A stretch of 63,998 nt of DNA, counting the filler, from Rhizaria sp. SCN 62-66 (taxonomy: Eukaryota), in the NCBI GenBank assembly GCA_001724265.1. It is 4 parts of 4 records of this genome, joined end to end, with 100 filler letters (N's around TTAATTAATTAA, not from the genome) between each part and the next. Parts side by side here need not be neighbours in the genome. Positions count along the whole stretch, not along the records: positions 1 to 13,603 come from MEDY01000523.1; positions 13,704 to 39,433 come from MEDY01000525.1; positions 39,534 to 52,853 come from MEDY01000526.1; 1 more part is not named here. One strand, given 5' to 3'. Under the pieces are notes generated by a model that was not told the DNA's origin, searched no databases, and was given only the letters and a program-made list of their open reading frames with translations. The position numbers and the translations under genes are program-made. Positions within the stretch are counted from its first letter, which is position 1; every line of letters starts with the position of its first letter. This document shows, one piece after another, positions 9,129-44,695 of the stretch.

Positions 9129-10485
9129 TGCTGCATCTGCATCTGTTGCTGCATTTGGCTGATGATGGCAGCAGCTGCCACCGCGGCAGCAGTCGCCGTG
9201 TTCGAGCTGCCAACATGGCTGCCGCTGTTCAAAGTGTTCATGGCGTTCATGTTGTTGTTGCCCAGCACGTTGACGGCGCTGATGTTGCTGTTGAGATTGC
9301 TGTTGAGCCCCAGGCCGCTGCCGCAAGCGCTGCCGCCGAAGCCGCTGCCGCCGCCATTGCTGCTGCCAAAGCCGATGCCGCTTCCGGGCCGTGACCCCGG
9401 GCCAGAGCCGGGGCCTGAGACGGGGGCGGTGGCGTTGTAGTAGAAGTTGTTGTTGTTGTTGTTGTTGCCGAGGGCGTTGTTAGCGTTGTTGGCACTACTG
9501 CTGAAACTATAGTTGTTGTTGTTAATGTTGTTGACGTTGTTGTTGTTGTTGTAGACGTTCGTGTTGCTGTTGTTGTTGTAGTAGTTGCTGCCGTTGACGT
9601 TGCTGTTGCTGAGGCTGTGCGTGTTGACCGCGGTCGTGGTCGGACTGGAGCCCGAGACGGCGACAGCCCACTGCCCGCTGCCGGCCCGCACGTGCTAACT
9701 CAGCGCGGCGGAGTGAACGAGGGCGGCGGAGTGACCGTGGGCAGACGAGTGACCGTGGGCAGACGAATGGTTGCCGCCGGTGCTCGAGGACGCTGAGAAG
9801 TGACTGTGCGCGTAGCCATTGTTGTTGTTGTTGTTCTGGTTATACATCAGCTGCTGCTGCTGCTGCTGATACTGTTGATGTTGCATCACATTCGCGTTCA
9901 TGTTGTTCATGTTGTAGGGCGGCGCAATATTGACGCCAGAGCCGGGGCCGGAGCCGGGGCCAGAGCCGCCAGAGCCGGCGCTGGCCGCGGGCAGCAGAGG
10001 CGACTGCGACTGCAGCTGCAGCGGCAGCGGCAGAGGCAGTGGCACTGGTACCGGCACCCCACCGCTGCCATACTGGCCGTGCGTTAACGCGGCGTTACTG
10101 TTAAGATTGCTATTGCAGTTAGCGGGGTAGCCAGTCATGCTGCCGCCGCCGCTGCCGCCGCCGTAGCCGCCGCCGCCACCGCCGCTGCCGACGCCGACGA
10201 CAGTGTTGCCGCCGACGCCCGAGTTGGCGACACCGCTGGCGCTAGCGCCGGCACTGAAGACGGAGAGGGAGGGCGGCAGCGAGAAGCCTGAGGCGACCGA
10301 AACGGCGTCGTCGTTGACGTTGACGACGGCGACCGCGTTGCCGCTGCCGAGGCCGCTCAGGTTGTGGCCGCTGCCGTGGCCGTGGCCGAGACCGAGGCTG
10401 TGCGCGGCGTTGGAGTTGGAGTTGGCGTTGACATTCACAGTATTGTTGTTGTTGCTGTTGAGAGACAACAGCTGAAGCTGCTGCA

Positions 10486-10522
<37 letters not shown>

Positions 10523-11079
10523 AAACTGCTGCTGGTACAGCTGTTGTTGTTGCTGCTGCTGTTGCTGCTGCGCGTTGTTCGCAAAGTACTGCTGCTGCTG
10601 CTGCTGCTGCTGCTGTTGTTGTTGCTGCTGTTGTTGCTGGTTAGAGCTGTTGGCAGCCATCACTTGTTGTTGTTGGTGTTGTTGCTGCTGCTGTTGGTGC
10701 AGCTGCTGTTGCTGCATCGGCAGTTGCTGTTGGAAGTGGTGGTGCGGCCGGGACAAGCCGAGCGCAGCAGCAGCCGCAGCCTAGAGTCGCCATAAACAAG
10801 AGATGGAAGCGGGGAAGACAACAAGGCGAGGTATAGAGCGCAAATGGTGAGGTTAGAGTTCTAAACAAATATAGACATACAATACAGTAAAAATTACACA
10901 ACGTGGCATGAAATCAGTGTGATATGCCATAATATATCTCGCCAAATGTGTGTTTTAGCGCACCTGGTTGCCGAGATGCGGGGTGGCGGCGGCGGAAAGT
11001 AGGCCGCTGGTGGCCGAGCTAGGGGCCGAGGGGGGTCCGGCGAGGGGGCTCCGCATCAGCATCCCGGGCCCAACCAAGC

Positions 11080-11111
<32 letters not shown>

Positions 11112-11588: not shown

Positions 11589-11635
<47 letters not shown>

Positions 11636-13603: not shown

Positions 13604-13703
13604 NNNNNNNNNNNNNNNNNNNNNNNNNNNNNNNNNNNNNNNNNNNNTTAATTAATTAANNNNNNNNNNNNNNNNNNNNNNNNNNNNNNNNNNNNNNNNN
13701 NNN
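13604..13703. other. Assembly gap with artificial TTAATTAATTAA linker
   Basis: N44-TTAATTAATTAA-N44, stops in all six frames; identical construct at two other sites. Confidence 0.97.
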
Positions 13704-16234: not shown

Positions 16235-17031
16235 ATGGTACGTATTCGTTCTGTGACAAGAACTGCGCGTTGTCTGTGCACTTATTTATCTTGTGTTTTG
16301 TTGCTGATCCTTTTGACGGACGTCTCTCACCCGAAAGACTGCCCCGAAAGAGATGCGCACCGGTCCTCAAGCTTGAAGGGAGCTGGCGACTGTTCCACCC
16401 ACCCCGACTTCGGCTCACCGTTCCTCTCTCGCTTTCTTTGATTCCTTTCCACAGGTCGAGCACATCTGGCAGAAGCCCGCTAAGACGGGCAAGGTTTTCG
16501 GCAAGGGTAACCGCACTTGGTACGTCCTCTTTTCCGTCCCCACTTCCTCATTCCCAGAGCCGCTCTAGCAAGCAGTCCCGTTCTCCCGCCGCCTGACGTG
16601 ACGCGATTGCGCGCTGCGCGTACTGTCTTATATGTTTCCCACATCTACATTACGCTCTCTATCAGTAAAATCAACCGCTCACGGAATCTCCCCGTCTTTC
16701 CCTCGCCCCGTTGCCCCCTTCATACCCACTCTTAGCCGCATCACTAACAACCACCGTGGTCTGATCCGCAAGTACGGCCTCTACGTCTCCCGCCGTTGCT
16801 TCCGCGAGATCCACAACGACCTCGGCTTCAAGAAGGTACGCTTCACTTCCTTCCTACTTCGTCTCGTCACGCCTCTGCCCCCTTGTGGCTAGCTAGAAGC
16901 CTAGAATGCCCTGTCCTTCGCTCCCAAAACCACCCTCGACTCCTCGTCCTGCGCTCTATCTCACCTTTTTGCCTGCTCTTCTCCTTCCTCTTGCTTTTGC
17001 CTTTACGTTCTCCCACCCACAGCTCAACTAA
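16235..17031 (+). CDS. RPS29: 40S ribosomal protein S29 (uS14); exons 16235-16237, 16455-16519, 16736-16835, 17023-17031
   Basis: Spliced MVEHIWQKPAKTGKVFGKGNRTCRITNNHRGLIRKYGLYVSRRCFREIHNDLGFKKLN*; GLIRKYGL and CFRE..DLGFKK signatures; three phase-compatible GT-AG introns. Confidence 0.95.
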
Positions 17032-17594
17032 GGTACTCGCTCGATGGCCTTTTTGCATTCTCCGCGAATGCGAATGCGTTGTCGCGTGCGCCTGTGTCTT
17101 CGCTCCGTCTGACTGCGACGCACCCTCTCTGAGAGTGTGTCCGGGAAGGTAGGACGCGGCGCTCGAGTGCGCTGCAGCGTTCCAGTCTCCTGCATTGTAA
17201 CCCCAATACACCATAGTTCTAATTACACTCTTCTTTTCTGCGTTGTTTTTATCTCGAGCTCTATCAATCTTATTGTTTTTGTGCCTGTTCGTATTGTTCC
17301 AACCACAAGTCAACTTTTGGACGATCGAGTGCAGTCTCTTAATGCCAGCGAGGGCCAAAGTCAAGTTTGTCGGGATTTTAATCGTCTCCAAGTCTATTTT
17401 TGCTATGATTGAGTTTACTGTGTAAAATTTATTATTTGTATAATTTCTTTTCTCTTATGGTCATCATCTAACTCGTGCTTTTCGCTCTTTCTTCTTACCC
17501 CTATGCACTCGTGCCAAGACCTCGTAGGCCGATCGCGTAACCAGACACGAGTCAGTCTAACCGCTTCCTAGCTTCTAGCTGTCCTTTGCACAAC

Positions 17595-19306
17595 ATGTCT
17601 GCCTCCACACCCGCGGCAACTGAGGCCGTTATCGCCTCCGTGGACGAGTTCTTCGCCCTCAACCCCGAGCCCGCGCTCACGACCCGCCAGCGTGTAAGTC
17701 GCCCTTGCCCCTTTCGTATCATCGCATCATGCGCTGTCATACCGCACTCTGTGCACATATCATCGTTGCTCATTGTATTTCGCTATGATATCCACGTTGC
17801 AAAGTTGATTTATCTTATTCTGCATTCATACTCCCCCTCTGTTCCCCGCCGCCTCTTGCTGCTCCACGCGCACTGCACCCATACCACACCACGCCCTGCC
17901 GACACACACTCCCGTCGCCGCCGCAGCCGGCCGTGGCGGCCTTCCTGTTGCGGCACATCTCTTGCGCGGGCCGCCGCGTTGCGCTGGTTACGGCGGGCGG
18001 CACGCGCGCGCCGCTGGAGGTCAACACGGTGCGCTCGCTGGACAACTTCTCCACGGGCCAGCGCGGCGCGGCGCTCGCCGAGGCGCTACTCGCGCGCGGC
18101 TACGCAGTGCTCTACCTGCACCGCGCCGGCACCGCTGCCACACCCTTCCGCCGCACGCTCGACCGCGCCGTCGCCGCTGCCGCTGCGGCCGCAGCGGCCG
18201 CGGGGACCGGCGGCGGCTGCGGCGGCGGGCTCATGGAGATGCTCTATGCCGAGAGCAGTGACACTATCAGTGATAGTGCCGACGCTGCTGGCACTGGGCT
18301 GAGGCTGCAGCTGGGCGACAGCGCGGCGCAGGCGCGCGCCGCGGCGGCCGTGAAGGCCTTCCGGCACTTCACTGACGCGGGCATGCTGCTGCACGTAGAG
18401 GTACGTGAGCGGCAGACGCAAAATACCCAGTTGTTTTTTGGTGGAATGTATTGTGACACACACATAAGTGTTGTTTGTGAGATATTTATGTATCTTTATT
18501 TTTGTTCACAGTATTTTCTTTACATCCCTCGATGGCTCTGTGAGCTTACTGTTCTTCTATCACTCACCTTTTGCTTGCATGCTTGCTTGTTTGTTTGCTT
18601 CTCTCCCCAGTTCGACACCGTGACCGACTTCATGCACTCGCTGCGGCTGGCGTTGCAGTCGCTCGCGCCCCTAGGCGCCCGCGCGGCGCACGTGGCCGCG
18701 GCAGCGGTGTCCGACTACTACGTGCCGCCCGCACGCGCCGCGGCGCACAAGTTGCCCTCCGGCGCGCCCGAGCTCACGCTGACGCTGCTGCCAACGCCGA
18801 AGCTGCTCGCGCTTGCGCGCACGTGGGCCCCCGCGGCCTTCTTTGTGTCGTTCAAGCTCGAGACGGACGCGGCGCTGCTGCTACCGCACGCCCGCGCCGC
18901 CGCCGCGCGCTACGCCGCCAACGCCGTCGTCTGCAACGAGCTGCGCACGCGCTACCAGCGCGTCACACTGCTGCGCCACAGGGTCGCCGCCAGCGTCGAC
19001 GCCAACGCCGCTGCAGACGCCGCTGCAGACGCTGCTGCCGCAGACTCTGCGGACGGCGCTGCCTCTGCAGACTGGGGCGAGTTCGCGACGGTGGAGCTCT
19101 GTCTGGACGACTACGTTGCGCAGTGCACTCAGCAGCAGCAGCAGCAGCAGCAAGGCCGGGAGGCGCCGGACACCGCGGGCGCGGAGACAGAGCTGGAGGT
19201 GCCGATGGCCGACACACTGCGCGACTGGCATGAGGACTGGATGCGCACCGTCGCTCGCTCTGTCGACCGCTCTGTCGCCCGCGCCGGCAGCGGGCGTGCA
19301 ACGTGA
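17595..19306 (+). CDS. PPCS: Phosphopantothenate-cysteine ligase (eukaryotic stand-alone type); exons 17595-17693, 17927-18400, 18611-19306
   Basis: [48 protein letters not shown] and VSFKLETD motifs; two GT-AG introns. Confidence 0.93.
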
Positions 19307-19616
19307 CGGGCGGGACTGGAGTGAGCCAACGACAATGCTGTTGTTGTCTTTTTAGTTCTTTGTCTTTAGGAAATGTTGAGCAGGGCATCTTTATTATTTC
19401 GTCATTTCTAGTCCTCATTCTTTGTATCCTCATTGAGGCTGTATCATCATCTTCTCATTTCATCTCTGCAAACGTCCTGAAGAGCTGATGCGTTGGGGCG
19501 ACGCACGCTCATTCGCCTCGCTGACAGGGCCAGCTGTTGGAAAAGAAGTTGGAGAAACGCTAAGATGCAACTGCAGTACTAAGTATGGACGGACACAATA
19601 GAGCAACAACTCTGGT

Positions 19617-19778
19617 GGTGAGTTCGCGCCGGTATATATCTCTCTACTTGTCGAGTACATTGCGCAGTGCAGTCAGCAGCAGCAAGGCCAAGAGGTGCCG
19701 GACTCCGCGGACGCGGAGCCGGAGCTGGAGGTGCCGATGGCAGATACGCTGCACAACTCCTACACTGCTGCCAAGTGA
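19617..19778 (+). pseudogene. Diverged duplicate of the PPCS 3' end
   Basis: [45 protein letters not shown] aligns with [41 protein letters not shown] at 19076-19225. Confidence 0.75.
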
Positions 19779-20209
19779 GGGTACGCAAAACACAGCATGC
19801 AAGTCTGACACTTTCAAGTCATATATCAGTCAAGTTGTTAAATAAAGCATTATTCTGTGTTTCTGTACTTGAATGACATAATTTGCGCGTTAAAGACGCA
19901 AATAACTTACTTCTTGCGCTGGCGCTGCAGCCACCAGTTGGAGCACCCATGCCTGACGAATTTCTTCAGCACGTTGTTTCTCCGTTGTAGATCCGTCATT
20001 GCGTAAGATGCAACTGGTTTCTCCAACTAATATATAAATTGTACTCATTTTTTGCAACAAATTGTGTTTACTTGTTGTTATATCCTCACAGTCCGACAAC
20101 CAGGCAAACCGCTCCAGCCAGTCTGTTTTGAAGCTCGTCGAACTATCTTTAGCACCATTTGTGTGGGCGCAATACCAGCCCAAGCGCTTTATAGCGCGCG
20201 CTATACAGT

Positions 20210-23200
20210 ATGAGCGCGGATGACGACGAGTTTGACTACGGCCTGGCCTCTGCTCGCGTGGTTTACGCGCCGTATCCGCCCACTGTTTCAGCAGCGTCTC
20301 GCGCAGCGCCCACGCCGGCCACGACCCTGGGCCCGTCATCAGCCACGTTCTCCGGTACGGCGTCCCCTCAGGCCGCCGCAGTGGTCGCCGCGACGGCTGC
20401 GGCGGCCCTGGCCCGCGCCAGCGCCGTGGCCGCCTCGGTCGGCGCGAGCACATCCGGCGCGAGCTCCGGCGGCGCGGGCGGTGCGCGTGTGGGCGCTGCC
20501 GGAGCCGGTGCGCTGGGCGCTGAGGGCGCGCGCGTGCGCGTGGTGCCGCTCTGGCAGCAGGATCTCTGGCAGGCGTCCGCGCCGCCGTCACAGCAGCAGC
20601 AGCACGAGCAGCAGTCTCCGGCATTACCGCATGTGTCCCAGCATCAACACCAGCATCTGAGCCAAGGTCAAGGACAGGGTCGAAGTCCTCTGGTCTCTGC
20701 GCTCGCCTCTGGCTCTAGCTCTGGCTCCGGCGCGCTGACCGGCCCCGCCATCGTCGAGCTAATCGGATTTGAGCCCACGCCCAGGCCCACGCCCGCGCCC
20801 GCCTCCACGCCCGCCGCCGCGACGCCTGCGCCCATCGCCACCACCACGGCCGCGCACGCGGCCACTGCGACGGAGCTTCCTGTGCTCTCGGTCCCGCTGG
20901 CGGCCGCCGCGCCAGGCCCAGGGGCGGCTGCGGCTCACTCCAGCGCGATCCGGGCGACATCCGCTGCCGCTGCCTCTGCCAGTGCCGCATTGGCATCAGG
21001 CTCTACGGCCTCAGGCTCGATGGTCACGGACTCGATGACTCCTACAGGTAGTTTGGCCACCGGGTCAATGCCGTCCGGCCATATGCTGACGGGGGGCGTG
21101 GTGCTTGGGGCAATGGCGGGTGGCGGTGACAGCGACAGCGACGGAGACTATCGCGAGAACGCGCGCGGATAGCAGTCGCAACCGACACAGTCTCAGTCGA
21201 CACAGTCTCAGCCATCACAGACGCAGTCTCAGCCCTTGCAGTCGCAGTCGGAGCTCCCCACTTCGACTCAGGAGCAGACACAAGAGCAGCCCCAGCTGCA
21301 GGCGCAGTCGTCGCTGTTGTCCATGCCGCCGTCGCTGCGGAGCCTGCAGTCGCTTCGCACGGGCTCTTCGCTGGCGTCCCCGTCGCTGGCCTCGCCGACC
21401 GGCGGACAGCCCTGGCCGCTGGCGCTGACCTCGATCCGCGACAGTGTAATGGGCACGCCGGTGCACGCTATTTCAGCTGCAAACGGAGGGTTTAATTACG
21501 GCTTTATTCCCGGCGCCGGTGCGGGCGCGGGCGCAGCAGGCGCGATGGCCTCGCCCGCGCTAGTGCACGCGCAAGCGCACGCGCTCCAGCCTGGGCATCT
21601 CGGCGGTGGCTACGTTAGCGTTGGGGCGTTCGGACTTGCGTCGCCCGCAAACTCCGCCACGCACTCCGCCACGCCCTCCGCCGCGCACTCCGCCTTACAG
21701 TCGCAGACGACGCCGCAGGCCGCGGCCGCGCCCTCGGGCTGGTTTCCCAAGCCCGCGCACACGCCCCAGCCCGCGTATCTGCCATCGCAGTCAATGTCAT
21801 CGCTGCCGCAGCCGTCCCGGCTGCACGTCGACGCGATCGATGCGTCCGCAGAGGCTGCAGAAACTGCGGGGGCTACAGGGGCTGCAGCGGCCGCGGCGCT
21901 CGCCAATCAAGGCGCTGTTGATGCCGCTGCCGCTGCTGCCGCTGCCGCCGCTGCTGCCGCTGTTGCGGACGCACGGAGGCAGGAGCAAGAGCGGGTGCGG
22001 GCGCAAGCACAAGCTGAGGTCGAGGCGAAGGCTGCGGCCGAAAAGGCTAAAGCTGCCGCTGAGGCCGAGGCTGCTGCCAAGGCCAAAGCGGAGGCAGACG
22101 CAGCGGCTAAGGCGAAGGCTGAGGCAGAGGCTGAAGCTGAAGCTGCCGCTGAGGCCGCTGAAGCTGCCGCTGAGGCCGAGGCCCGTGCGCTTGCCCGTGC
22201 TCGCGCGGAGATCGAGGCCAAGGCCAAGGCTCGGGCAGAAGCAGAGGCAAGAGCGCGGGCCCAGGCCAACGCTAAGGCCGAGGCTGAGGCGGCTGAGCGG
22301 GCGCGCGCTGAGGCCGCTGCGGCCGCTGAGGCTGAGGCTGCGGCCGCTGCTGCGGCCGCCGAGGCTGAGGCGCGGGTCCGGGCTGAGCGCGAGGCTGCCG
22401 AGGCTGCCGCAGCTGCCGCGGCCGCCGTGGCCGCCGCTGCTGCTGCTGCTGCTGCTGCCGAGGCCGCGGCCCGCGCTGAGGTCGAGGCCGCTGCGCGCGT
22501 GGAGGCCGAGGCGCGCGCGCGGGCCCATGCGCAGGCACAGGCGCAGGCGCAAGCTGAAGCGGACGAGGCCGCCGCGCGGGCCAAAGCAAAGGCTGAGGCT
22601 GAGGCCGCTGAGGCAGCGGCTGCTGCAGCAGCTGCCACTGCTGCAGCAAAAGCGAAGGCTGAGGCTGGGGCTGAGGCTGTTGCCGTCGCCGCCAGTGCTC
22701 TTAATGCAAGTGCTGCTGGTACAGGTGGCGACGACGAGGTCTACACGTTTGACATCGACGACGACGACTACGGCGACAACGGAAATTACAACAGCGCCAG
22801 CTTGTACAACGCAGGCGGCTACGCCAGCGGCCGCGGCTTTGGCGACAGTGCCGACGGCGACCATAGCGCGGGCGCGAACGCCATCTCGGTGCCGCCTGCG
22901 CCCGCCGCCGCCGCCGCCGCCGTCCCCGTAAGCGCGTCTGCGCGCCCTGCCGCGGACGCCGCAGCTGTGCCCGCCGGCGGCAGCGACGACGACGACGACG
23001 ACGACGGCACGGGGCTGTACGACAACGACTGGGCCGTTGAGAGTGTGCCCGTCACTGCGCGCGAGCAGCCTGAGCAGCCGCCGCAGCAGACACAACAGCC
23101 GGCGCTTCAGCAGGCGCAGGCACATACGCAGACACAACCGCAGTCGCACATGCAGACTGCCTCGGTGCTTGCCTCGTCTCCCCCCGTCGCAAGTGTTTCG

Positions 23201-25310: not shown

Positions 25311-28300
25311 ATGAGTGATACGGAGAGGCATCTCAAGGAGCTCCTTGACAAGGAGGCAGGCGAACAACAACAACAACAACAACAGCAGCAGCAACAACAA
25401 CAACAACGCCTCGATGCAGCAGCTCAGGTGGAGCTGGCGGAGCCTTCGGCACTCTCGACTGCCATCACAAGCTCCTCAACACGGACAGCCCCGCTTACGC
25501 CTGCAGCGACAATACAAAGCTTGCAAGATTCCAGCAATGCCGCGCATGATGAGCTATCCCGCCTCTTGGCTGAGGCCCAGAGGACAACTGAGAGCCACGC
25601 AGACGCAACATCAACGACAAACACTGTGGGAGCTAATCCAGTAACCACTCCAGCTGCTGCTACTGCTGCTGCTGCAACTAGCACTCAGGCTGCTGCTGAT
25701 GCAAGTGTTGCATCAATGGACGTTCCAGGTGCTATGTCTTCCGGGGCAGAACTGTCTCTTTTGCGGTTGCGTGCTAAGATGATTGAGACATCGCAAGCTT
25801 TTCTCTCGCTGTGTCAGCAGTTAGCTGTCGCTGATGAAGCTTTAGATCATGCAGTGTCGCATTTCAATTCGCAAGACTCAAGCAAGGCACATTTACACCA
25901 CGCTGATCCCAAGCATGTTAAACATCTCGAGCTTGTTGCATATAATATCAGCAAGAACCTGACGCGTGCGGCGCCTCAAGCAAAGAAAGCACTTGTTGCG
26001 TATAATTCGGCTGTAGCTGATGCATCTGCAGTTGCGCAACCTGCTGCGCCGGCAACCACGGCAAACGCAGCTTTTCGAAGTATACCGGTCACTGTTGCCC
26101 TGGATACTGCTCAGATCGCCCGTACAGCGGACAAAAACTCTGTAACTGCTTTCTCTCTTCAGCAGTTATATTCGGATATGATCGAAACAGAGATAGCGGC
26201 ATTCGCAGTGCGTCAACAAGAAGCTATTGCGAGTAAAATTCTTCGCATCGCAGTGACGTGTGACGCATCAACAGACGACATCAATGCAAAACAAGAGCGT
26301 TTCATGATTGCGTTCCGCAACATCACTTTTAAGAAGAGCATTGCTGTGAGTCTTGCCAAAATGGCGCGTGCTGTATACAACTTGGCGACTACTATGGTTG
26401 GCAACTCTGTGAATTCTACTGCTTCTCCTGCATTAGTAGATGTGGTTGTAACCATCGTTGCTGCTCCAACCATTGCTTCTGCGGTGACTTTCGAATCCGA
26501 GTCTGCTTCAAGTTTGCTCTTGAAGCTGCGTCAGGCAGATGCAGAGTTTCTGACTCTGCTTCAGCAAGCATCTAACTTGCAAACAGATCTTCTTGATGCA
26601 AGGGTTCGCTCTCAGTCCCAAGACACGCACGATGAGACTGGGACTCTGAAGAGTGGGGCACACAGTCTCTGCGCGAAGATGATTACTTCTATGGGACAAA
26701 CAAAATGTTTGCTTGCTGCATACGACCTTGCTCTCGCTGATGCTGCTGATGCTGCTACTGCTGCTGATACTGTTAATGCTGATGATGATGCTGCTACTGC
26801 TGCTGATACTGTTAATGCTGATGATGATGCTGCTATGATGATGATGCTGCTACTGCTGCTGATACTGTTAATGCTGATGATGATGCTGCTACTGCTGCTG
26901 ATGATAATGCTGATAATAATGCTGATAATAATGCTGATGATAATGCTGATGATAGTGCTGATGCTGCTGTTAGTGTCCCTTATCCTACTGAGAACTCTGA
27001 TGATACAGCAGCGTCAACAACCACGGCCCTTGAACATCTGTGTGCGGAGTTGACTGATGTAGAGAAAACGTCCCGCACTATCCGCCAACAAGTATCTATT
27101 GCTTATGCAGCTCTTCTTAAAGCGAGGGTGTGTTCCCAGTCACAAGATCTTAATGTCGCGCAGCATCAGCGTGATCAAATCGAGCTTCTTGAGAGCACGC
27201 TCCGTGACCTATGCATCAAGGCGAATTTAAACAAAGACCTCGCCAAACGGTTGCTTAATGCGTACAACCCGGCTACTGATGCTGTTGCCAATGAAACCTC
27301 TCATATCGATGTAAACGGTCTTGCAAATACTGTGGTGAACATTGCCATGCAGGTGCAAATGCTGTGCAGCCAGGCTGCTGTACCGCCTATCGCTGTTACT
27401 ACTTCCCCGAGTGTCTATGCTGCCAGCACGATTGCTGCTACTGCTAAATCCGATGTTTCTGCCACTGCGCCAACGGTCGCACATGTAACTCTTAAGCAGT
27501 TGCAAGCTGAGGTGACCAAGACAGAACAAGTCGCTTGTGCGTGGCGCCAACAGACTGTTTCCGCTAACGCGGCAGTTCTTCTTGGTGAAAAGCTTTGTAC
27601 TCAGTTGCAAAACCCGGACAAGGCGGAGCAACAGCGCACTAAAACTGAGCGTCTCAGGATTGCGCTTAACACCGCTACTTTCCAGTCCGAAACTGCGGCG
27701 TATCTTGCATCAGCGGCGCGTGCGTTGTACAACTTGGCTTCTACTGTAAGGACAATTGCTGGGGTTATGACTGATAATCCGATCCCTGATGCAGTCGTTG
27801 CAACAACTGTTGTGCCAACCTCTGAATATTTGCGGAAACCTGTATCTATCGGACAACTACGTTCGAACAGGCTCAAGACAAACGCACATTTGAAAAAGCT
27901 TTGTTGTCAGGCAGTTCACACTCAAAGTCTTCTCGAAAAAATAGCAAGCTCCCCGAAGACGCAAAATAACGAGCGCGAGATGATTGCGGCTCGCAATCTC
28001 TGCACGAATATGTTTTCTGTCATGGATCAAGCAAAATATTAGCTCAGCACGAACGACGTAGCTGTTGCTACGTTTGCCTCAGTTTCCTTTCCTGCCATTG
28101 TTGCAACTGCAACAAGTGCGTTCTTTAAGCAGCTGCCCTATGATATGACCAGGACAAAAGAAACGTATCTCGCAATGCACAAGAAGGCAGTTGTTGCAAC
28201 TGCAACAAGTGCGTTCCTTAAGCAGCTGCCTTATGATATGATCAGGACAAAAGAAACGTATCTCGCAATGCACAAGAAGGCAGTTACAGCTCTCGCGGCT

Positions 28301-30796
28301 CTTGATGAAGCGAGGGCTCGTCCACTGTCGCATAACCCACGCAAGGCACAGCAACAGTGGAGTGAGATTGAGTGTCTTTTGGACGTTGTTCGTGATCTTG
28401 GTAGGGAGGTAGCGACTGCCTTTGATCTTGCTCAAGAGGCGTGCAGCGCGTACAAGGCTGAGATTTGTTCTTCTAGTTCTAGCGTGTCTTCTCCAAACAC
28501 GCCCCTTGAAAATGCGCGTGCGGAGATGACGAAGACCAAGAGCGCTGTCAACGCACTCGATCTTCGGCGGGCTATAATCATGAGGGATTTGCGTGCCGCA
28601 CAGGACCGGTCTTTTTCACAAGACATCTCCGAAGCTCTGCAACAGCGCATGAAGTTCGAGAATCTTAAGAGTGCGGAGCGTGACATTGACGCCAAGATTA
28701 TATCAGCCACATCCTGTGCCAAGACAGCATTCTATATCTTCAACTTGATTGCAGCAGCTACAACAGCAGATATTGCGATGTCTCTCTCCAAGAACTTGTC
28801 TGCTGGCACCGTTGCACCTGTCAGCACAGATGTCCCATCGTGCGTCTCTGCGGGTTTATTGTCGTCCCCCTGGGTATCAAATAGTAATTACATTGCACAG
28901 CTTACCACAACAATTTCTAAAACGCGGGAGAGCACTGACGAGATCATTGAAGAAACGAATATAGCAATCAGTAAGCTGATAAAGGCACGGACATTGAAGA
29001 AGCCTAAACTTCATAATGAAGCGCAGGTTGCTCAAGCACGCACAAACAAGCTTGAACAGAATGTGAAACAACTCTGCAAGCATGCAGCACAAGCGGGCAG
29101 AAAACTAAAGAGTCTGGTCCAGAAGTACAACATGGTGGCAACTAAACTGGCTACTTATCAGCGGTCTGCAGCGTCATACGTCTCAATTGAATCTAAAACC
29201 ACCCGCAATGACGTGATCAACACAAAGGCGAATAACTGTAACCCAGAGGATAATCGTTCTGACAATTACAACGCTGACAACAACAAGGATCATGATGAAA
29301 ACAGCCAAAGCAACAACAACAACAACAATAGTAACGATAGCGACTGCAACGGCGCTGCCGAGCTTTCCAACAGCGATGATGACTCCGACTATGACGATCA
29401 CGATGATGAAAACAACAGCACGTCCATCGCAGACCAGATGAATCTCGCATGGGAGTTCTACTCAGCTACACTGCCGCGCTATGACTGTACCTGTGCGCCC
29501 TGCACTGACAGCGACTGTACGTGCGGGGCGCGGCGCTGCGTGGACGGCGTCAAGTGCGACTGTGCCGACGTGCCCGAGTGGTACCACAACCTGTTTGTGC
29601 AACGGCCCAATGTCTTACGCCGTGTACGCTGTCTTCTGAGGCGCGCAAACGTGTCGTCCTCGAATGCGGTAACCGATATTACGCCCTCGTTCTGTTCTGA
29701 TGCTGCCGATGCAAGCACAATTTTTGCTGCTTTTACGCATGTGCCGCTGCATCAGGTTCGTGTAGTTGTCCTTGGTCAAGACCCTCTGCCGCGCGAGAGC
29801 GGTGCGAACGGTTACGCATTTTGCTCGGACTGCGACAGCGTTGACAGCACGCATGACACCGTAGCTATCGTGCTGCAAGAGATGTACAACTGCACTGGTG
29901 ATGACATCCCAAAAGCTCACAATAGGCTTGATCAGACAAGGAACCCGCTATCCCGCATCATCAACTGCAATGACACAATGCCTCTGTCTAAACATGGCCA
30001 GTTTCTTGCCGAACAGGGCGTGTTGCTGCTACAGTCAGCGCTGACGCACGCAAACGGTGACTTACGCTCGCACTTGCACGCATGGCATCCGTTCACGTGC
30101 GCCATTCTGCGGCTCATTGCGCGCACAAACCCCAACGTAATTGTCGTGGCTCTGGGCGATATTGCGCGCGACATAGTCGTAACGTCGTTACACGGCGTCA
30201 GCGACTCGCTGCTGTGCGACTTCCGCTCTCAACGCGCCGCACACGAGATGGACATGGATATTTACACCGGTAAGTGCGACGAGTACGGGGTGTTGAACGA
30301 CAATGTCGATGCCAACGCAGTTCGTAGTGGCAGTAAGTCCGTGTTGCTGCCAGTGGATCAGGTCATTTTAGCCGGCAACCCATCTTCCAGCAACGATGAC
30401 CTCCGCACACCCGGCGCGCAGCACCAGTTCATCGGATCCGATGTCTACCGAAAGGTAAACCACCTCCTGACAGCACGCGGCAAGCACCCTGTACGCTGGC
30501 TGCCGGCTGAATGGCTTGGTCAACCGACTGATAGCCTTGGGTCAGAGTCAATGTCACAAGCTGATTCTGAGCAAGAGCAAGCTTTGAAGTCGCGTGACAA
30601 AAAAAAGCGGCGTCCGCGCAGGCGTCCGCGCATGCGTTCGAAGAAGACCGATGGCGATGCTGACCTGAATCAGGGCGAGTGCGCCAACGGCAATGACAAC
30701 ACGTTGACATATCAACAAAATGACTGCGCTGTCGAAGAAACTGGGGAGGAAGATATGTCGGAAGAAGAGGATAGCAATGTAAATAAGTCAAACTGA
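25311..30796 (+). CDS. Helical-repeat + Cys-rich + divergent uracil-DNA glycosylase fusion (~1830 aa); frameshift ~26835, in-frame TAG 28040-28042
   Basis: Three ORFs join into one: frame change inside a tandem repeat, then the same frame across the TAG. The C-terminal domain has family-1 UNG landmarks IFAAF..VRVVVLGQDP, ANGYAFC, LAEQGVLLL, H..AW..FT, FIGSDVYRKVNHLL..GKHPVRW. Confidence 0.75.
26737..26968 (+). repeat. 39-bp tandem repeat (ADDDAATAADTVN) decaying into GCTGATAATAAT units; contains the frameshift
   Basis: GCTGATGATGATGCTGCTACTGCTGCTGATACTGTTAAT repeated; one unit is truncated at about 26835. Confidence 0.85.
28098..28285 (+). repeat. 93-bp in-frame tandem duplication (2 copies, 3 mismatches)
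   Basis: TTGTTGCAACTGCAACAAGTGCG...CACAAGAAGGCAG starts at 28098 and again at 28191. Confidence 0.92.
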
Positions 30797-31399
30797 CGAT
30801 GGCTCTAATTGTACTACGTACCATATTGCTGCGTTTAGACGAGAGCAGTGGAACAATGATATGCGCGAAGGCGCAACAAAGAAAATTATGATGACGAAGA
30901 TTCGATGAAAGCAAGAGTAATAACGAACATTCTGAGGTTAAGAAGGCTCAGGGGACTGGGCTGTCAGGTACCCGTCAGTGTAATAAAAATTGTAACGGAG
31001 TATACATGTACGTACATGTACAAAATTTAAAAAAAAAATAGCTACAGATAAGGAGGTCACATAATGTTTAAAGTCGAATGATGACTCCAACGAGTACAAT
31101 ATACAAGTATGAATCCACGACTGCAATACGTATTGATACATGAGATGAGTGCTGCGACGCGAGCGCTTCGCGCATCACTGCGAAGTGGAGCTGCTGCACG
31201 CGTGCACTTTCGCGATGGCTTAAAATGCTCAAATATATAGGCTTGCTAAGAGGAGTTTCACCCCTACATATCACGATCCAGAGATGCTTTAATTTAAAAC
31301 AAATCGGTTTCATGGTGGGTATGATGAATTCTACTATTTTCGCTCAACTTGATATATTCCCCCAATTGTGAGATCTATTATAGATGGGAGGACGCTTGT

Positions 31400-31900
31400 C
31401 ACCTGAAGAGGGAGACTTTAAGTTGGCGCGCGATGCGACGGACACCACGACCAGCGCGGCGGAGAGCACTGTCAAGGCTACAGCCGCCCGTGCCAGCCGG
31501 TGATAGATCGTCGTCGTCTGGAGGAGTTCGCTGCTACCGTGTTCCGTCAGAAGCGTCTGGCCTTCGCCAAGAAGTACCGCACTCACAACTGGAGCAAGAC
31601 CATATTCACCGACGAGAAGGTCTTGAGGATTGGCCGCCGTGGCGCCGCCGTTCACTACCGTATTGGCGAGTTGCCGGTCATGGAGGTCAGCGACTGCGGT
31701 GGCGCGGTCGCGCATCTGCAAGACGCGGCGAATCGCCCCATGTCTCCGAGGGGGCGTCATCCGGCAAGACAACGCTCGGTGCCATGTGGCTCGGGAATCC
31801 TCGGCTGCCTTAAGCGCCGTCGCTCAACGTGCTGCCCAACCGGCCCGCCCAAGAACCAGTTCCTCCAGGAAGAGGAATCCTTCACATGACATGACTGGTT
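31400..31900 (+). mobile_element. Degenerate Tc1/mariner (DDE) transposase remnant
   Basis: QKRLAFAKKYRTHNWSKTIFTDEK (first catalytic Asp block) and, in another frame, GVIRQDNARCH (second Asp block); frameshifted and internally deleted. Confidence 0.85.
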
Positions 31901-32487
31901 GAGGGCTACTAATCGCGGTAAATTTATAATTGTCAAATAAAATAAAATAATATAAATATGATATATTTCATTAATAAATTATGCCTTCATTTTATGAAAA
32001 CTAAAATTACATTTTATGGAAAAGACTTTGATACTAGTTAAAATGTTTAATAAATAATTTAAGTATTCTTTAATAAAATATAATATTTTTTTGTCGCCAC
32101 AAGCAGTATATTTTCAGACAGCTATAACTCAAAATTGAAAACGGTCAGAAAAAGGCAATTAAACATATTAAACACGCTAATGTACAATAAATTATTAAAA
32201 AAGGTTTATATTTGTATTTATTTGCATTTATCTAAATATATCACTATACAATTATCAATAATCAAAGTATTCTAAAAATAAAAATGATTTTATGTATATT
32301 ATATGATTTCATAAAAATGGTATATTTACTACATGTTGAAACCGTATTTTGATCTCCTCGCTGCACTTAAACACGACAATCGAGAGTTGGTGACTGCGAG
32401 CCTGAAGACGTCAAGACCCGAAGACCGGCGGAGAAATTGAGCTGATCATCCTGCGCGAAGGAGTTCATGGATTGTCTAAGCGATATA

Positions 32488-33177
32488 ATGTCTCAAAGTA
32501 AGGCTTCTAAGTGTATTACTCTGTTTGTTATGTTGCCTGTTGCGTTTTGTAGATATGCTGACTTCGCTCGTCCGCGCTCGCCGCGTTGTTGCCGCTACTG
32601 GTTCCGCGTTCGCCGCCGCCGCCGTCACTGTTCCCTCCCGGTACGCTCTTTTTCGTGTGTGTGACTATATATTACGTATCTCTGTTTACATTACGGGATT
32701 TTCTTACTCCTGCCTCTGCGACTCTCCCCGTTTGTCCTCTCCGCAGCGCTTCTTCATTCGAGGTCAAGACTATCACCCCCGGTGATGGCAAGAACTTTCC
32801 TAAGGTACGGTGATTTTCACCTCCCTGGGTTTCTTAACATCAGGTTCATTGTTGGAAAGCCACTCTTGCTCATGCTATCCTTATTTCTTTCTGCCCTTTT
32901 ACAGTCTGGTGACAAGGTCACCGTCCACTACACTGGCACCCTGACCAACGGCACTAAGTTCGACTCTTCCCGCGACCGCAACCAGCCCTTCGTCTTCACC
33001 ATCGGCCGGGGCCAGGTCATCCGCGGCTGGGATGAGGGCGTTGCCAAGCTTTCTGTCGGCGAGCGCGCTACCATCGTGTGCCCCCCCGAGTACGCCTACG
33101 GCCCCCGCGGCATCGGTGGCGTCATCCCTCCCAACGCCACCCTCAACTTCGACGTCGAACTCCTCAAGATCAACTAA
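32488..33177 (+). CDS. FKBP1: FKBP12-type peptidyl-prolyl isomerase with N-terminal presequence; exons 32488-32497 (tentative), 32553-32640, 32747-32804, 32905-33177
   Basis: [68 protein letters not shown]; all introns phase-compatible; TAA. Confidence 0.93.
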
Positions 33178-33750
33178 GCGCGCTACTCCCAGCATCTGCA
33201 ACGAAGCGACTCGTGTTTATCTATTCACTGCCAAACAGCGGGCGCGCGCGGCGGCTGTGGCGGCTCTCTGCAGCCCGCCACGTTGAGTCGCGTGTCCCTA
33301 GAGAAAGGCTCGTTGACAATACATTATGCAATCCTTGCCTTGAGCTTTCACATCTTCCACGCCTGATACGTGTCACCCTTTTCTGAATTGAACTCGGTCA
33401 TTAATTCATTCAGATTCGAGCTTTTCTTCTTACGGGCGCGTTTAGCGTGTTTGCATTGTCAGCATACGTAGCTTCTAGCCGTTCGTTCTCATCATTTTTC
33501 AGCAGCAAAGAAAGTTGGTCTCAATATCAAGAGCTATCCCGAACCACACTTTCCGTCTACGACATTCCCAACATGATATGAGACGTCTAAGTTTATATTA
33601 TATTTGTTTTTGTTTTTATTTTTCCGTTAGTGCTTTTTGGCGCACAGGAGCGCTGTCTATATTCTCGGAGACGACGACACTCTTAACACCTCTGAGCATC
33701 ACTTTATATCGCTCCTCGGAGAGCTTCCATCCAACTTTCACAGTCTTTGA

Positions 33751-34585
33751 ATGAGCTCTGGACCCGAGCCTGTTCCTAACAGCAGTGGCGCTGCGCCGTC
33801 AGGCCAAAACAACGAAGATGACGTACGTTACATCCCTACATCTCTCGTCGCATTAGAGTGCTCACCGTTCCCCGTTCTCACTCATCTCACGCTTCGCAAT
33901 CTCATTTGCTTTCTTTTGCATTATAGCTTATCGCCGGGCTGAAGGGTCTTTCCGTGCCCGCCAGGACGCCCGCCGCAGATGCCGACGCCGCGCTGTATGC
34001 GCGTCTGTGCGCGCTCCGTGGCGTCGACCCATCGAAGCCCAATGCCGCCGCGCGCCCCAAGCCTTCCGCAACCGACGCTGCCTCTGTCTCGGCTGCTACC
34101 GATTCCACTGCTGCGGCTGCGCCGTCTGCCGCACATGCCCTGCTGGCAGCCATGCGTGCTGGCGGCGGCGGCAATGGAGGTGTTGACAACGATGACGATG
34201 ATGATTCGTGGTGGCAGCAGCGACAAGGCAGCAGCAGCAGTATGAATCTTGGCTCTGGCTCTGGCTCTGGTTCTGGCTCTCTTGCAGCTGAGACTGCTGC
34301 CGCAGCGGACGCTGTTGTTGCCTCAGCCTCGGCCGACGCCGCCACCGCGTTGGCCGCCGCGCGCGCTGCGCTGCAGTCTCAGCCACATCAGAACGCCAAT
34401 CTCGCTGGCTTTGGCGCCCTCGACGACAACAGCGACGGCGACGTTGACGCTGATGGAGACGCAGAAGAGGACGGCGATGCAGAGGGTGAGTGGCTATGGG
34501 GAGCTGACTCGGCCGACGCGTTGGTGGCGGCGTTGCAGAGGCAAAATGACAAGAAGAAACAACAAACACACGAGCAGGCATTGCA

Positions 34586-39433: not shown

Positions 39434-39533
39434 NNNNNNNNNNNNNNNNNNNNNNNNNNNNNNNNNNNNNNNNNNNNTTAATTAATTAANNNNNNNNNNN
39501 NNNNNNNNNNNNNNNNNNNNNNNNNNNNNNNNN
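39434..39533. other. Assembly gap with TTAATTAATTAA linker
   Basis: Same construct as 13604-13703. Confidence 0.97.
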
Positions 39534-40447: not shown

Positions 40448-42555
40448 TTAGTCCTTGCCGGCCATCTTGCGGCCCGCGCGCATGACCTCGTCGACGAGCA
40501 GCAGGTTGGTGGCCATCATCGTGCCCAGGTGGATCACCTGGCGCTTGACGCAGTAGTTGTCGTAGATGCCCGCAGACTCGGGCAGCAGCGCCTTGCCCGT
40601 CTCGAGGTCCACGCCGGCCTTGGTGCCCTTGCGCGTCTCGTCGAGCAGCTCCACCGTCGTCGTCTGCGCGTCGAAGCCGGCGTTCTGGGCCAGCGTCTTG
40701 GGGATCACGAGCAGCGCGTCAGCGAAGGCGCGCACGCCGATCTTGACGCGGCCGGGGATGTCGCTCGTCGCGATGTACTTCATCAGGTGGTGGTAGCACG
40801 ACAGCTCGAAGGCGCCCGCGCCCAGCACGATGGACTTGTCGACGATGGCGTTGGCGACCGCGCGGAGGCCGTCGCGGAGCGCGCCCTTGATCTGCGCGAT
40901 CGTGTGGTCGTTGGGGCCGTTGATGAGCACGGTGCACGACTTGCTGTTCTTGCAGCCCTCGACGAAGGTGAAGACGTCGTCGCCGAGCGAGTGCTCGTAC
41001 ACGAGCGCGGCGTGGCCCAGGCAGTCAGGCGTCAGCTCCTCGAGCGCGGACACGGCGTAGCCGCCGCAGGCGCGCGAAAGGCGCTCCATGTTGCGGCGCT
41101 TAGCGCGGCGGATGCCGACGATGCCGGCCTTCTGGAGCAGGTCCAGTGAGATGGGGTCGATGCCGCCCTGGTTGATGACCACGAACGCGCCGTCCTTGCC
41201 CACGGTCGCCTCCTTGAACGCGATGATCTGCTTCACCTTGTCGTCGGTGAACTTGCGCTCCGCCAGCACAAGCTTGCGGCGCTCGTCGGCGTTCTTGTAC
41301 ATCATCGTCGAGTTGTCCATCGACTTCTCGTACTCGAGCGAGACGTTGCAGACAAAGATGGCGACGTTCTCGGAGCGCTTGGACATGTTGGGGTGGCGCG
41401 CGCCGTGGTCGAGCACGAGCCCGTCGATGAAGCGCGTGTCGGTCGCAGCGCCGTGGCGCATGTGCATGATCTCGATCATGTGCAGGTCGATGTTGCCAGC
41501 GTCGGCGCCGTCCTTGTCGGGCGAGTCGCGGACCGTCAGCACGGCCTTGACCACGATCTCGGCCAGGTGGTCCGCGAGGTCCTCGGACACCTTGGTGCGC
41601 AGCGACGTGCGCGCGATGGCCAGCAGCAGCTCCTGGTCAAACTCGACGACCTCGCGCTTAAACTCGTCCAGGTGCTTGAGCGCCTCCTCGCGGGCGCGCT
41701 CGTAGCCCTCGACCAGCACGCGCGGGTGCAGGCCCTTGGAGCAGATGCGCTCCGCCTCGGACATCAGCTCACCGGTGAACATCACGGACGAGGTGGTGCC
41801 GTCGCCGGTGATGTCATCCTGAAAGAGATAGGGGAGCGAAGGCAGGCGAAAATAGAAGAACAACGGAGAGAGAGAGAAAAACACAGAAACCGGCGTCGGT
41901 CAAACGGACATGGATTGTTTAGTGAGCACAAGAGGTATTATTTGATGAGCGGTCAAAAATAACAAAGAGGACCATATGAACATTAGCAAATAGTTGATTA
42001 TAATTGAATTTAAGGTTATAATCTAATCACCAGCGCCCCTAAAGCTCGAGTCGAAGAAGTTCGACCGGGAGCTGTAACGTACCTGAGCGGTAGCCTGGCG
42101 GGCGATGAGGGATGCGGTGGGGTGCATGATGGGGGCCTCGTCGAGCACGGCCTTGCCGTCCTTGGTGACCTTGATCAGACCAGCGCCGGAGACGAGCCTG
42201 TGCGTGCGTTAAGAAGCGTTCGTGTGAGAGAGCGAGCAGCGGCGGTCGCCGAGTCGAGTAGGGCGCGTGCGTGTGCGTGAGATTGAACGGAAGCGAGGCG
42301 GGAAGAGAGAAACAAACACAAAAGCAAAAATAAGCACAAGGAGAAGATATATCAAGTGCTGGGGTATGTTCAAGTACTCGGTTAGCGTCAAGCGGGATTG
42401 TTTAGGGGGCGCAGAGGCACGTACATCTTCATGGTGCCCTTGGGACCGAGGTTGCTCTTGACGAGCGCCTGAAGACCCTTGCCCGCCGAGCAGTTGATCA
42501 TGAGGGCGTGGTTCTTGCCGATAATATCGGCGTTGGGGTTAACCATTTGGGCCAT
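40448..42555 (-). CDS. CCT6: Chaperonin CCT/TRiC subunit zeta; exons 42555-42425, 42197-42083, 41818-40448
   Basis: [64 protein letters not shown]; two GTACGT..CAG introns; TAA. Confidence 0.97.
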
Positions 42556-43231
42556 TTTTCCGCGTGGGGGCGAGGCCTGGGCGCGCAGCAATCGAATACG
42601 GCGAGAACGAACGACAAATAGAAAAGTGAGCGAGACGTTGGGACCGACCAGAACAGGGTCCGCCAGTCAAATCGGGAACCGGCCTATAGCTGAGGATCTG
42701 TTGTGATATAACGCCTAAAAACATATTTCAATGATATTTCGCGTTGCAATGTCATCATAAGTGATATCTAATTGCTAAACAACCGATCGTCCGTGACGTG
42801 TATCGCGCTCGAGTGGCCGGGCCGGGTGGGGCGTTTTCGAGCCAGTTCAAACGGGGTGTAAGTGGGCCGAGGCCCTTAGACGGGGACCCGACTGGGCCAG
42901 TGGGGGCCAGATCCCCAAGGGGAGCAGGGGAGCCCCTCTCAGCACCACTTTCGACGCGTCCTTCAGGCCCATTGACGACTTGTTTCGGGTATCACCGATT
43001 TAATATGCCACTATATTCTCCTTGTTCTATCATGGGGCGCAATTTTATGCCCGCTCCATTTTGTGCTGCCCCGCTGGGACACCCTTCGATGTCGCTGCCT
43101 CCCTTGCTGGGAAGCCCAGACGAAGGAGCATTCTCCGACCCTTTGTATGCGTCTTGCTAACCTTGTCTCACCCTATTGACTTCACCATTTGCTTCTTTCG
43201 TCCTTCCCAGGTGCCCCAGTACCGAGCCAGA

Positions 43232-44695
43232 ATGCGAATTTTGGTTTTGTTATTGGCTTTTGCCGCTACCGCTGCTGTCGCGGTGTCGGGCGGCGCCGAC
43301 AGTGTCTATGTCGCGAAGTGGGGCATTCCTAGCTTCGAGGACGAGGGTACGTCCGCCTTTCTTCCCTTTTCTTCTTTTCTTTGCCCTCTTATCTTCTTTC
43401 CCATCTTACTCTCTGCGCCAAACACCCGCTGGAACTGCCGCTACGAAGCCCTCGAAGCCACCCGACCAACCCTCCTTCATGTGAGCTTGCATCCCCGACC
43501 CTGCTCCTCCTGCTTCCGCTCACCCCGCCGCGTCTCCCTCCGTCCCCTTTCCCCTTTTGTTTCTGCCTTCTCTTGCCCCCTTACAGCCTGCGTTCTGTGC
43601 CAGTACGCGGTGCAGCGCGTCGAGCACGCGCTGCTGCAGCGTCTGGACTCGATCGACCGCCAGTCCAAGTCGACCCCGTCGGCTCCGTCGACGGTCGACC
43701 CGTTCGCCAACGCGGCCCCCACTGCTGCGGCTGTTGTCCCGGGCTTTGCCAGCTCCGTCGCTGATGCCGCCAACGTGCGCGGTGCCATCACGAACTCCGC
43801 GACGGCGATGCTCGACACGACGTTCGACCCCTCGATCGGCTACAAGAAGGAGCTGATCCGCTCCCTGCGCACCCGCTGGGGCGGCTCCTCCATCCTGCGC
43901 TACATCTGGGAGGACTTCCTCACGCACTTCTGCTCCCAGGACCGCATCCCGGGCATCTACGTCCCCGTGTGCTCGATGATGTACGAGAACGCGCGCAAGA
44001 TCATGAAGCTCATCTTCTACGGCTTCCCCAACGACCAGGTCTGCCTCATGTCCAAGATGTGCGGCAAGAACTCGTACTTCGCCGCCCCCACCGCCGTGCA
44101 CGACCCCGTCATGTCGCTCTATTGGAACAACAAGCGCGGCCTCTCGGGCTTCGAGGGTGGCATCCACGGCGTCACCGTTTCGGACCTCCAGTCCAAGCGC
44201 GCCGAGAAGGAGGCCATGGCCAAGCAGGCGATCGAGCTCAAGAAGAAGCGCGCCGAGGCCGCCCGCATGCGCCTCGAGTCTGCCGAGAAGCGCGCCGAGC
44301 TCAAGGCGCAGCGCGCGCTCGAGGACGCCAAGCGCGCGCTCGAGACGGCCGAGAAGGCCAAGCACGAGGCCGAGCGCCGCAAGTACGAGGCCCAGGTCGA
44401 GAAGACGCGCGCCGAGCTCGAGGCCCGCAAGCGCGCCGAGGTCGAGGCCCGCGAGGCCCTCGCTCGCGAGGCCAACGTCCGTATGACGAACCTGCTGCCG
44501 CTGTCGCGCCTCAAGATGGAGCTGTCGGGCCACACGCTCGCGCTCGTCGACGCCTCGCAGACGCAGTCGCTGGCCTCGATCACCGACATCCAGGGCGCCA
44601 AGACCGTGGACCAGACGTCGCAGGACGCCACCAAGGACTCCCAGGCCGCCCAGGGCTCGACGTAGGCGGGCGAACAGCCAAACTGGGGCTTCTAA
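43232..44695 (+). CDS. Secreted saposin-like (SAPLIP) protein with C-terminal coiled coil; exons 43232-43346, 43587-44665 (44695 if TAG is sense)
   Basis: Signal peptide MRILVLLLAFAATAAVA; six-Cys saposin pattern CVLC...HFC...PVC...QVCLMSKMC; E/K/R/A coiled coil; strong GC3 bias. Confidence 0.75.

Follow-up and report, generated by a model that had tools for sequence, protein, structure and literature searches.

The DNA analysed here is a window of 63,998 nt (filler included) from assembly GCA_001724265.1 of Rhizaria sp. SCN 62-66, in which four contigs of one metagenome bin are joined by N44-TTAATTAATTAA-N44 blocks at 13604-13703, 39434-39533 and 52854-52953. Three of its genes, a long Pumilio-family gene on contig 1 and two genes on contig 2 (gene B and gene C below), each contain one in-frame TAG: TAG 9695 on the minus strand, TAG 21170 and TAG 28040 on the plus strand (Table 1). 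These TAGs are neither gene ends nor introns; they lie inside single frames that code on both sides. The evidence inclines us, though not steeply, to the view that UAG is translated in this organism while UAA and UGA remain stops.

The N-terminal part of the Pumilio-family protein is long and rich in Gln, Asn, Gly and Ser, and the PUF repeats are encoded in exon 2, where the open reading frame (ORF) 2124-6692 matches PF00806 (PUF) with E=8e-32. The junction of the putative 149-nt intron (AA/GTACGT...TCTATAG/A), as read from the sequence, preserves the frame and continues into '...LRALCVDPFGCRVVQRLLD', and the poly-Gln/Asn ORF, which holds the first TAG, probably forms one gene with the ORF of the Pumilio repeats. 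The TAA at 6743, which the preliminary description of this DNA had taken for the end of the first gene, falls in the probable intron, and the gene runs on into the Pumilio ORF. The product of gene B is of low complexity, rich in Ala, Glu, Lys and Gln, with no known domain; none of 8,000 candidates scored as a homologue of its residues 200-520. Gene B is transcribed, with RNA contigs of run X5 at 20261-20522, 20527-21382, 21485-21803 and 23795-24150. Gene C is laid out as about nine helical repeat modules of ~90 residues, an acidic, Asn-rich linker, a Cys-rich stretch and a C-terminal domain resembling family-1 uracil-DNA glycosylase (UDG), which is matched in Pfam with E=2e-4 and by PDB entry 3wdf with E=1e-11. 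This UNG-like domain retains GQDP and has Asn ('GNPSSS') at the place of the catalytic His of UNG motif B.

The open pieces flanking the TAGs are 361 and 983 codons long at 9695, 325 and 1222 at 21170, and 404 and 917 at 28040. In all six pieces the gene frame is free of stops, whereas the five other frames hold 10, 7, 3, 12 and 10 stops before TAG 9695 and 17, 20, 10, 19 and 27 after it; 6, 7, 9, 7 and 4 before TAG 21170 and 21, 65, 18, 17 and 25 after it; and 12, 27, 6, 11 and 25 before TAG 28040 and 33, 75, 20, 27 and 38 after it. For the shortest piece the probability of being open by chance is ~0.001 (Poisson rate equal to the mean of the other frames). The openness is not simply that of GC-rich (guanine plus cytosine), low-complexity DNA, as each of the other five frames carries 3-75 stops. 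In a six-frame scan, a single stop flanked by 300 or more open codons each way occurred at five places in the window. Two of these five lie antisense to an identified gene, TAG 57149 across from the ABCG ORF and TGA 3555 across from the Pumilio gene, and every single-stop junction with TGA or TAA in the scan belongs to an antisense or alternative frame of such a gene. A codon model was fitted to 3,833 codons of six ORFs or ORF parts outside the TAG genes (CCT6, ABCG, DFP, CMI2B and parts of FKBP and DnaJ). The resulting codon-usage scores before and after the TAG were 0.37 and 0.30 in the Pumilio gene, with 0.31 in its exon 2, and 0.13 and 0.14 in gene B, the gene frame being highest; gene C, which differs in composition, scored near zero before and after its TAG.

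All 20 of the other ORF ends are followed by a drop in GC of 0.06-0.34 over 150 nt and by 1-10 in-frame stops within 100 codons. GC shows no such drop after the three TAGs (0.60 to 0.62, 0.65 to 0.61 and 0.43 to 0.47), and the next 100 codons hold no in-frame stop. Since the GC drop, the further in-frame stops and the AT-rich spacer are all missing, the three TAGs are not gene ends. Introns in the window are 149-264 nt long, start with GTACGY and are pyrimidine-rich, and none such flanks a TAG. We rejected as introns the 24-nt in-frame GT..AG stretches found at 9695 and 28040, given the intron lengths just stated and the fact that the 28040 region aligns as repeat-module protein. The Pumilio-family gene and gene C each have a single recognisable domain (PUF repeats, UNG-like fold), and in both it is encoded beyond the TAG without a change of frame; these are not dead genes. 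The observation in the preliminary description is hereby upheld: it had placed three TAGs in frame, with the same frame open for hundreds of codons on both sides and nothing resembling an intron around them.

The three TAGs are real in DNA, one having been checked directly and one indirectly. TAG 21170 is covered with no difference by DNA contigs of two studies (X1 record 3, 16814-21910; X3 record 10, 17561-21485), and a poly(A) RNA contig (X5 record 28, 20527-21382) spans it ungapped, with two differing letters of unlocated position. Run X5 shows the RPS29 intron spliced out and has zero depth over the spacer that follows gene B, which marks it as real mRNA of the organism; TAG 21170 appears to be present in mRNA. 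Contigs of both DNA and RNA span 21170; 28040 has no RNA cover in X5. These data bear on the idea that the TAGs are artefacts or mis-modelled, whether through an assembly or consensus error, small introns, RNA editing or adjacent genes sharing a frame. The window does come from a metagenome bin of four glued contigs, a frame change in a microsatellite of gene C speaks of imperfect assembly, and beside the two unlocated letters X5 has three T>C places in all. But the identity of TAG 21170 in two independent studies, the ungapped RNA contig, the difference between the introns of this genome and anything beside the TAGs, the position of TAG 28040 inside a repeat module and the want of an AT-rich spacer at any site make such an origin highly improbable.

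As a terminator TAG is scarce. Among the 20 ORF ends in the window we count 9 TAA, 10 TGA and 1 TAG; an earlier tally of 8, 11 and 1 was right about the single TAG and is corrected in the other two. TAG makes up 834 of 3,355 (25%) six-frame stop triplets vs at most 1 of 20 ORF ends (P ~0.025). At the one exception, 44663, GC goes from 0.69 to 0.52, five in-frame stops occur in the next 100 codons and the C-terminus is not conserved; a TAA does follow ten codons on, as had been pointed out, and the gene ends here under either code. Sense-frame interruptions in 17 ORF pieces (13,580 codons) number three for TAG and none for TAA or TGA; they affect three of ~15 genes, and no frameshift occurs outside the microsatellite. 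The claim that only TAG, never TAA or TGA, interrupts genes here therefore stands as a count, but as evidence it is weak and not significant alone (three of three, P ~0.2). TAG is absent from CCT6, ABCG, DnaJ, DFP, FKBP, GYF, CMI2B and Pumilio exon 2, and also from RPS29, which bears out its characterization as a rare codon without occurrence in CCT6, ribosomal proteins (here RPS29) or ABCG. UAG is seen only in long, weakly constrained genes, which are probably also weakly expressed. In-frame TAGs before the start codons of ORFs 36176 and 33927 and of the GYF gene were set aside; they lie in AT-rich leaders and are not coding.

Table 1. In-frame TAGs, the genes that carry them and other features of the window (positions count along the whole window)
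Feature	Position	Strand	Details
Pumilio-family gene, ~2,814 codons	2124..10717	minus	exon 1 10717..6768; inferred intron 6767..6619; exon 2 6618..2124; TAA 2124-2126
In-frame TAG number 1	9695..9697	minus	codon 341 of Pumilio-family gene; C next
Gene B, 1,543 codons	20210..24841	+	TGA end 24839-24841, then AT-rich spacer
In-frame TAG number 2	21170..21172	+	codon 321 of gene B; C next; then Gln/Ser/Thr/Pro-rich repeat
Gene C	25311..30796	+	TGA end 30794-30796
GAT/GCT microsatellite, periods 3, 12, 39, 56	26736..26963	+	gene C frame changes within; AATAADTVNADDDAATAAD peptide read in two frames
In-frame TAG number 3	28040..28042	+	repeat module 6 of gene C, 13 residues short of module end; C next
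Uracil-DNA-glycosylase-like domain	29708..30517	+	downstream of TAG 28040, same frame; three segments aligned to PDB UNG chains
CAG codon, Gln 1178 of P0003	30359..30361	+	TAG in strain X4; 5 residues before 'GNPSSS'
Sole TAG at ORF end	44663..44665	+	G next; TAA ten codons later, 44693-44695; identical in L001
CCT6 (TCP-1 zeta) main exon	40448..41899	minus	no TAG; TAA end; used for placement
RPS29 intron	16836..17022	+	187 nt, GTACGC...CACAG; confirmed by spliced RNA contig (run X5)
CMI2B-like ciliary inner-microtubule protein gene	50327-51286	minus	

Gene C is an orphan and lies in an island of ~9 kb (24842-34000) with ~50% GC within a contig of 60-70% GC. The third gene of the preliminary description retains its TAG and additionally holds the frame change in the microsatellite. 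This change is probably an assembly error in repeat number and could be a real frameshift; contigs of X1 differ from the window at 26977-27037, adjoining the microsatellite. The repeat-module alignment continues for 13 residues beyond TAG 28040. A tandem duplication at 28098-28285 (93 bp, exact-frame, 2.0 copies, 96% match) lies 56 nt after this TAG; its first residues vary among the database versions (MTRTKE, MIRTKE, or a start at MHKK). Among proteins of 727-2,314 residues no whole-length homologue of gene C and no version lacking the interruption was found, the one match being its own downstream piece of 883 residues, and comparison of the product with viral contigs and with contigs of prokaryote genomes gave no match. 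All four members of the downstream-product cluster start past TAG 28040. In strain X4 (diverged ~1-2%) no change is listed at the TAG, in a 286-nt contig (27887-28172) that lists three elsewhere, and TAG 28040 appears to persist across the strains and assemblies sampled. At 30359, inside the UNG fold, X4 has a further in-frame TAG for the window's CAG; like the persistence of TAG 28040, this speaks for a sense UAG. X4 record 22 shows a net length difference of three letters (1,907 against 1,910), which might be an in-frame indel but does not figure among the indels listed. Variant P0288 (792 residues), with four changes in its last 28 residues, ends right before the window's CAA at 30521-30523; either a CAA>TAA change has placed a stop directly behind the UNG fold, or a contig ends there.

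Across the window GC is 0.46-0.74 per 2 kb, which is GC-rich eukaryotic DNA, and the spacers between genes are short and AT-rich. The recognisable genes are those for the Pumilio-family protein, PPCS/DFP, FKBP, a GYF protein, CCT6, a DnaJ protein and a CMI2B-like ciliary protein; a further long ORF of 2,147 codons is the putative ABCG of the preliminary description. Apparent ORF ends at 13651 and 39489 lie in the linker and are no real stops, and genes flanking the linkers may not be genomic neighbours. The organism probably makes a flagellum, since it has the CMI2B-like ciliary inner-microtubule gene. The three introns examined, one each on contigs 1, 2 and 3, start with GTACGY and end with a pyrimidine-rich tract and AG; the one in CCT6, read from the sequence, is 264 nt long and runs on the minus strand from 42082. 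This common splice site, together with base composition and a codon model that is transferable between contigs, supports the assignment of the glued contigs to one organism. Several studies of bioreactors, wastewater and activated sludge have the stretch 20000-29999 in their metagenomes.

The best named match of CCT6 is Guttulinopsis vulgaris (69%), followed by other Rhizaria at 61-63% (Bigelowiella, Paulinella, Lapot). In a quick maximum-likelihood tree of 25 rows the window sequence stands with G. vulgaris in a nine-row clade supported at 100% by the Shimodaira-Hasegawa-like approximate likelihood ratio test (SH-aLRT). Judged by this protein, the organism belongs to the Guttulinopsis (sainouroid) clade of Rhizaria. 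PPCS, on contig 2, gave no taxonomic resolution, its best matches being to a barnacle, Symbiodinium, Tribonema, Gefionella and Lagenidium, with 47-55% identity in the parts that align. The placement matters for the interpretation of the TAGs: translation of UAG gains independent weight because CCT6 puts the organism in the clade of exLh.

In exLh, a rhizarian of Sainouroidea, UAG encodes Leu while UAA and UGA are stops (Panek et al. 2017, PMC5304391). As reported there, 384 in-frame UAGs occur in 71 genes terminated by 56 UAA and 15 UGA; many of the UAGs are at conserved Leu positions, and UAG is the commonest Leu codon in the proteasome genes (PMC5304391). G. vulgaris uses almost only UAA terminators, with one putative UAG stop, and an in-frame stop in one of its transcripts is put down to sequencing error; the decoding tRNA and a genome were still lacking for these rhizarians in 2017, and the authors awaited genome sequencing (PMC5304391). 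The precedent named in the preliminary description, UAG as Leu in a sainouroid rhizarian, is thus documented. Its statement that such codes are rare also holds, in that few are known, but novelty was overrated given a precedent in the same clade. A literature search returned no later papers on sainouroid codes.

The window resembles exLh, as far as exLh is described in that paper, in its clade in the CCT6 tree, in interruptions by TAG only, in UAA and UGA as what appear to be the terminators, and in the particular scarcity of UAG where expression is high (in exLh the genes of ribosomal proteins; here none in RPS29, CCT6 or ABCG). Unlike exLh, an insect-dwelling organism represented there by transcripts only, the organism of the window comes from bioreactor and wastewater metagenomes and is represented by genomic contigs, and UGA ends half of its ORFs vs 15 of 71 in exLh. 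With G. vulgaris, the closest named relative, it shares the near-absence of UAG as a terminator; in contrast to that standard-code species, for which the account cited gives no reliable in-frame UAG, there are three in 64 kb here. Outside Rhizaria, UAG is read as Gln with UAA as stop in Iotanema spirale (Fornicata; PMC5304391) and in the ciliates Hartmannula sinica and Trochilia petrani (PMC11687900). These share with the window a UAG uncoupled from UAA, and an interchange of CAG and TAG in strain X4 and a Gln-rich context at 21170 would fit Gln, but the lineages are unrelated and, in the descriptions cited, have widespread sense UAG. Uncultivated phyllopharyngean ciliates read UAG as Leu, and their suppressor tRNA genes were identified (PMC11687900). 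As presented in that source, they too were mined from metagenome-derived genomes and have UAG alone reassigned; unlike that work, our tRNA search was confined to 64 kb.

A number of observations, set out in this and the next two paragraphs, weigh against translation of UAG and against a settled REASSIGNMENT. There are three sites in total, all in low-complexity or orphan sequence. In-frame TAG falls far short of expectation: 3 against 137.7 expected from position-specific composition, i.e. 46-fold rarer, or ~1 in 4,500 codons, far below TTA (32), CTA (36) and CAA (153), and the other 13 ORFs have none in 7,438 codons. From a deficit of this size it follows that TAG is still selected against. 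Three TAGs in 13,580 codons, none at a conserved position, differ from the 384 in 71 genes of exLh (PMC5304391, as cited above), and usage of the exLh kind, with several UAGs per gene and conserved genes included, does not occur here. We found no orthologue spanning any of the TAG sites, and none of the three is in a cross-species conserved column; it had indeed been said from the start that no TAG falls in a universally conserved column. No tRNA(CUA) was found, there being no tRNA in the 64-kb window or in L001-L003 and no Rfam match, and the eRF1 gene is absent from the 64-kb window. The placement comes from a single gene and a quick method, with one named sainouroid among the rows, and CCT6 is on contig 3, while the TAGs are on contigs 1 and 2.

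Several further points are those expected if the code were standard and the TAGs were tolerated nonsense alleles or young pseudogenes in weakly constrained genes, their downstream domains being made from internal starts or not made at all. In CAG-rich genes that are GC-rich at third codon positions, C>T changes make TAG the commonest nonsense product: its share of single-base nonsense changes is 0.69-0.72 in Pumilio exon 1, 0.64-0.67 in gene B and 0.47-0.48 in gene C, and the probability that plain nonsense mutation would yield TAG throughout is ~0.2 for the three sites and ~0.1 with the X4 site included. An ATG lies within ~35-150 codons after each TAG. Gene C may be in decay: its GC is atypical, its frame changes in the microsatellite, X5 gives it no RNA cover, its listed differences are mostly nonsynonymous (13 of 22 in X4 and 8 of 12 in X1, with two places in both lists), and it bears a second TAG in another strain, X4. 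This latter change, 30359 C>T, is in one contig of depth 12.5, 34 nt from the contig end, and is followed by G. The stop of P0288 at the window's CAA, if it is TAA and not a contig end, would be of the same kind. In L003, a relative at 70% CCT6 identity (52% GC, 332-kb contig), a mitochondrial-carrier gene (L003:7323-8771, minus) seems to end at TAG, with a second TAG nine codons later, which suggests that the L003 lineage uses TAG in the standard way. Against nonsense alleles stand the three of ~15 genes hit within 64 kb while TAA, TGA and frameshifts other than that of the microsatellite are lacking, the single frame that stays open downstream for hundreds to thousands of codons, the intact Pumilio and UNG domains, and the apparent presence of TAG 28040 in every assembly sampled and in a strain diverged by 1-2%. 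The deficit of TAG at ORF ends would be left unexplained, and membership in the sole rhizarian clade with a known UAG-sense member would be a coincidence. On these grounds we regard nonsense alleles as unlikely, if still to be reckoned with.

The base after the TAG is C at three of three sites (chance ~0.014, post hoc), and C after a stop codon is the leakiest termination context; this would fit readthrough over reassignment. UAG would then be formally a stop that terminates poorly, owing to the leaky C context and near-cognate tRNAs; the code would be ambiguous or in transition and would have no suppressor tRNA of its own. The G after the terminal TAG agrees with this, as does the avoidance of TAG both in frame (46-fold) and as a terminator (1 of 20), which is expected of a codon poor at both jobs. 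But the products that would depend on readthrough are 917 to 2,473 codons long and bear the only recognisable domains of their genes, so that readthrough of low efficiency would starve the cell of Pumilio protein; moreover, the TAG of strain X4 has G next, and the C pattern was noticed post hoc at three sites. Readthrough appears rather improbable to us, if likewise still to be reckoned with. Set beside these alternatives, a code with sense UAG, as proposed in the preliminary description, is the best-supported reading, on account of the open frames and the CCT6 placement in the exLh clade, yet with three sites it is unproven.

As to the amino acid, Leu had been named as likely, and this is not established. 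In the other eight repeat modules of gene C, the column of TAG 28040 holds Ala five times and Leu three times, on which MAFFT and a profile agree; an Asn column, obtained when the modules were aligned by eye, was overturned by the MAFFT and profile alignments of these eight. The Ala/Leu column fits Leu and, with the kinship to exLh, hints at it, whereas the CAG>TAG difference of strain X4 and the Gln-rich repeat after TAG 21170 fit Gln and hint at that residue. Each pointer is a single weak hint.

If UAG is indeed sense, ribosomes would translate it as an amino acid and terminate at UAA and UGA, the same kind of code as in exLh. A tRNA with a CUA anticodon would decode UAG, eRF1, in which position 69 of the human numbering is Ala in exLh, would recognise UAG poorly, and Leu and Gln would be the candidates for the residue inserted. 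The codon-capture model of code evolution postulates an 'unassigned codon' stage. One might picture a code change in progress, in which UAG had all but disappeared from either role, stop or sense, and were now coming back as a sense codon in long genes of weak expression, maybe as Gln by CAG/TAG interchange and so with another meaning than the Leu of exLh, in what would be a second independent reassignment in the clade; we think this doubtful but offer it as a scenario.

A sense UAG in this organism, if true, would add a member to a type of code already on record, from the clade that also holds exLh; what would set it apart is how nearly UAG is absent and that genomic DNA is available. Going by the sources cited above, codes that change UAG and keep UAA as stop are few: exLh, Iotanema and some phyllopharyngean ciliates. 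Gene callers that assume the standard code split the genes described here, and for gene C the database has just the downstream piece of 883 residues. In a free-living relative of exLh at genome level that recurs in bioreactor and wastewater metagenomes, the questions of the tRNA(CUA) and of eRF1 would become directly testable, and the near-absence of UAG would bear on the route by which stop codons are reassigned, through disappearance of the codon or through an ambiguous intermediate.

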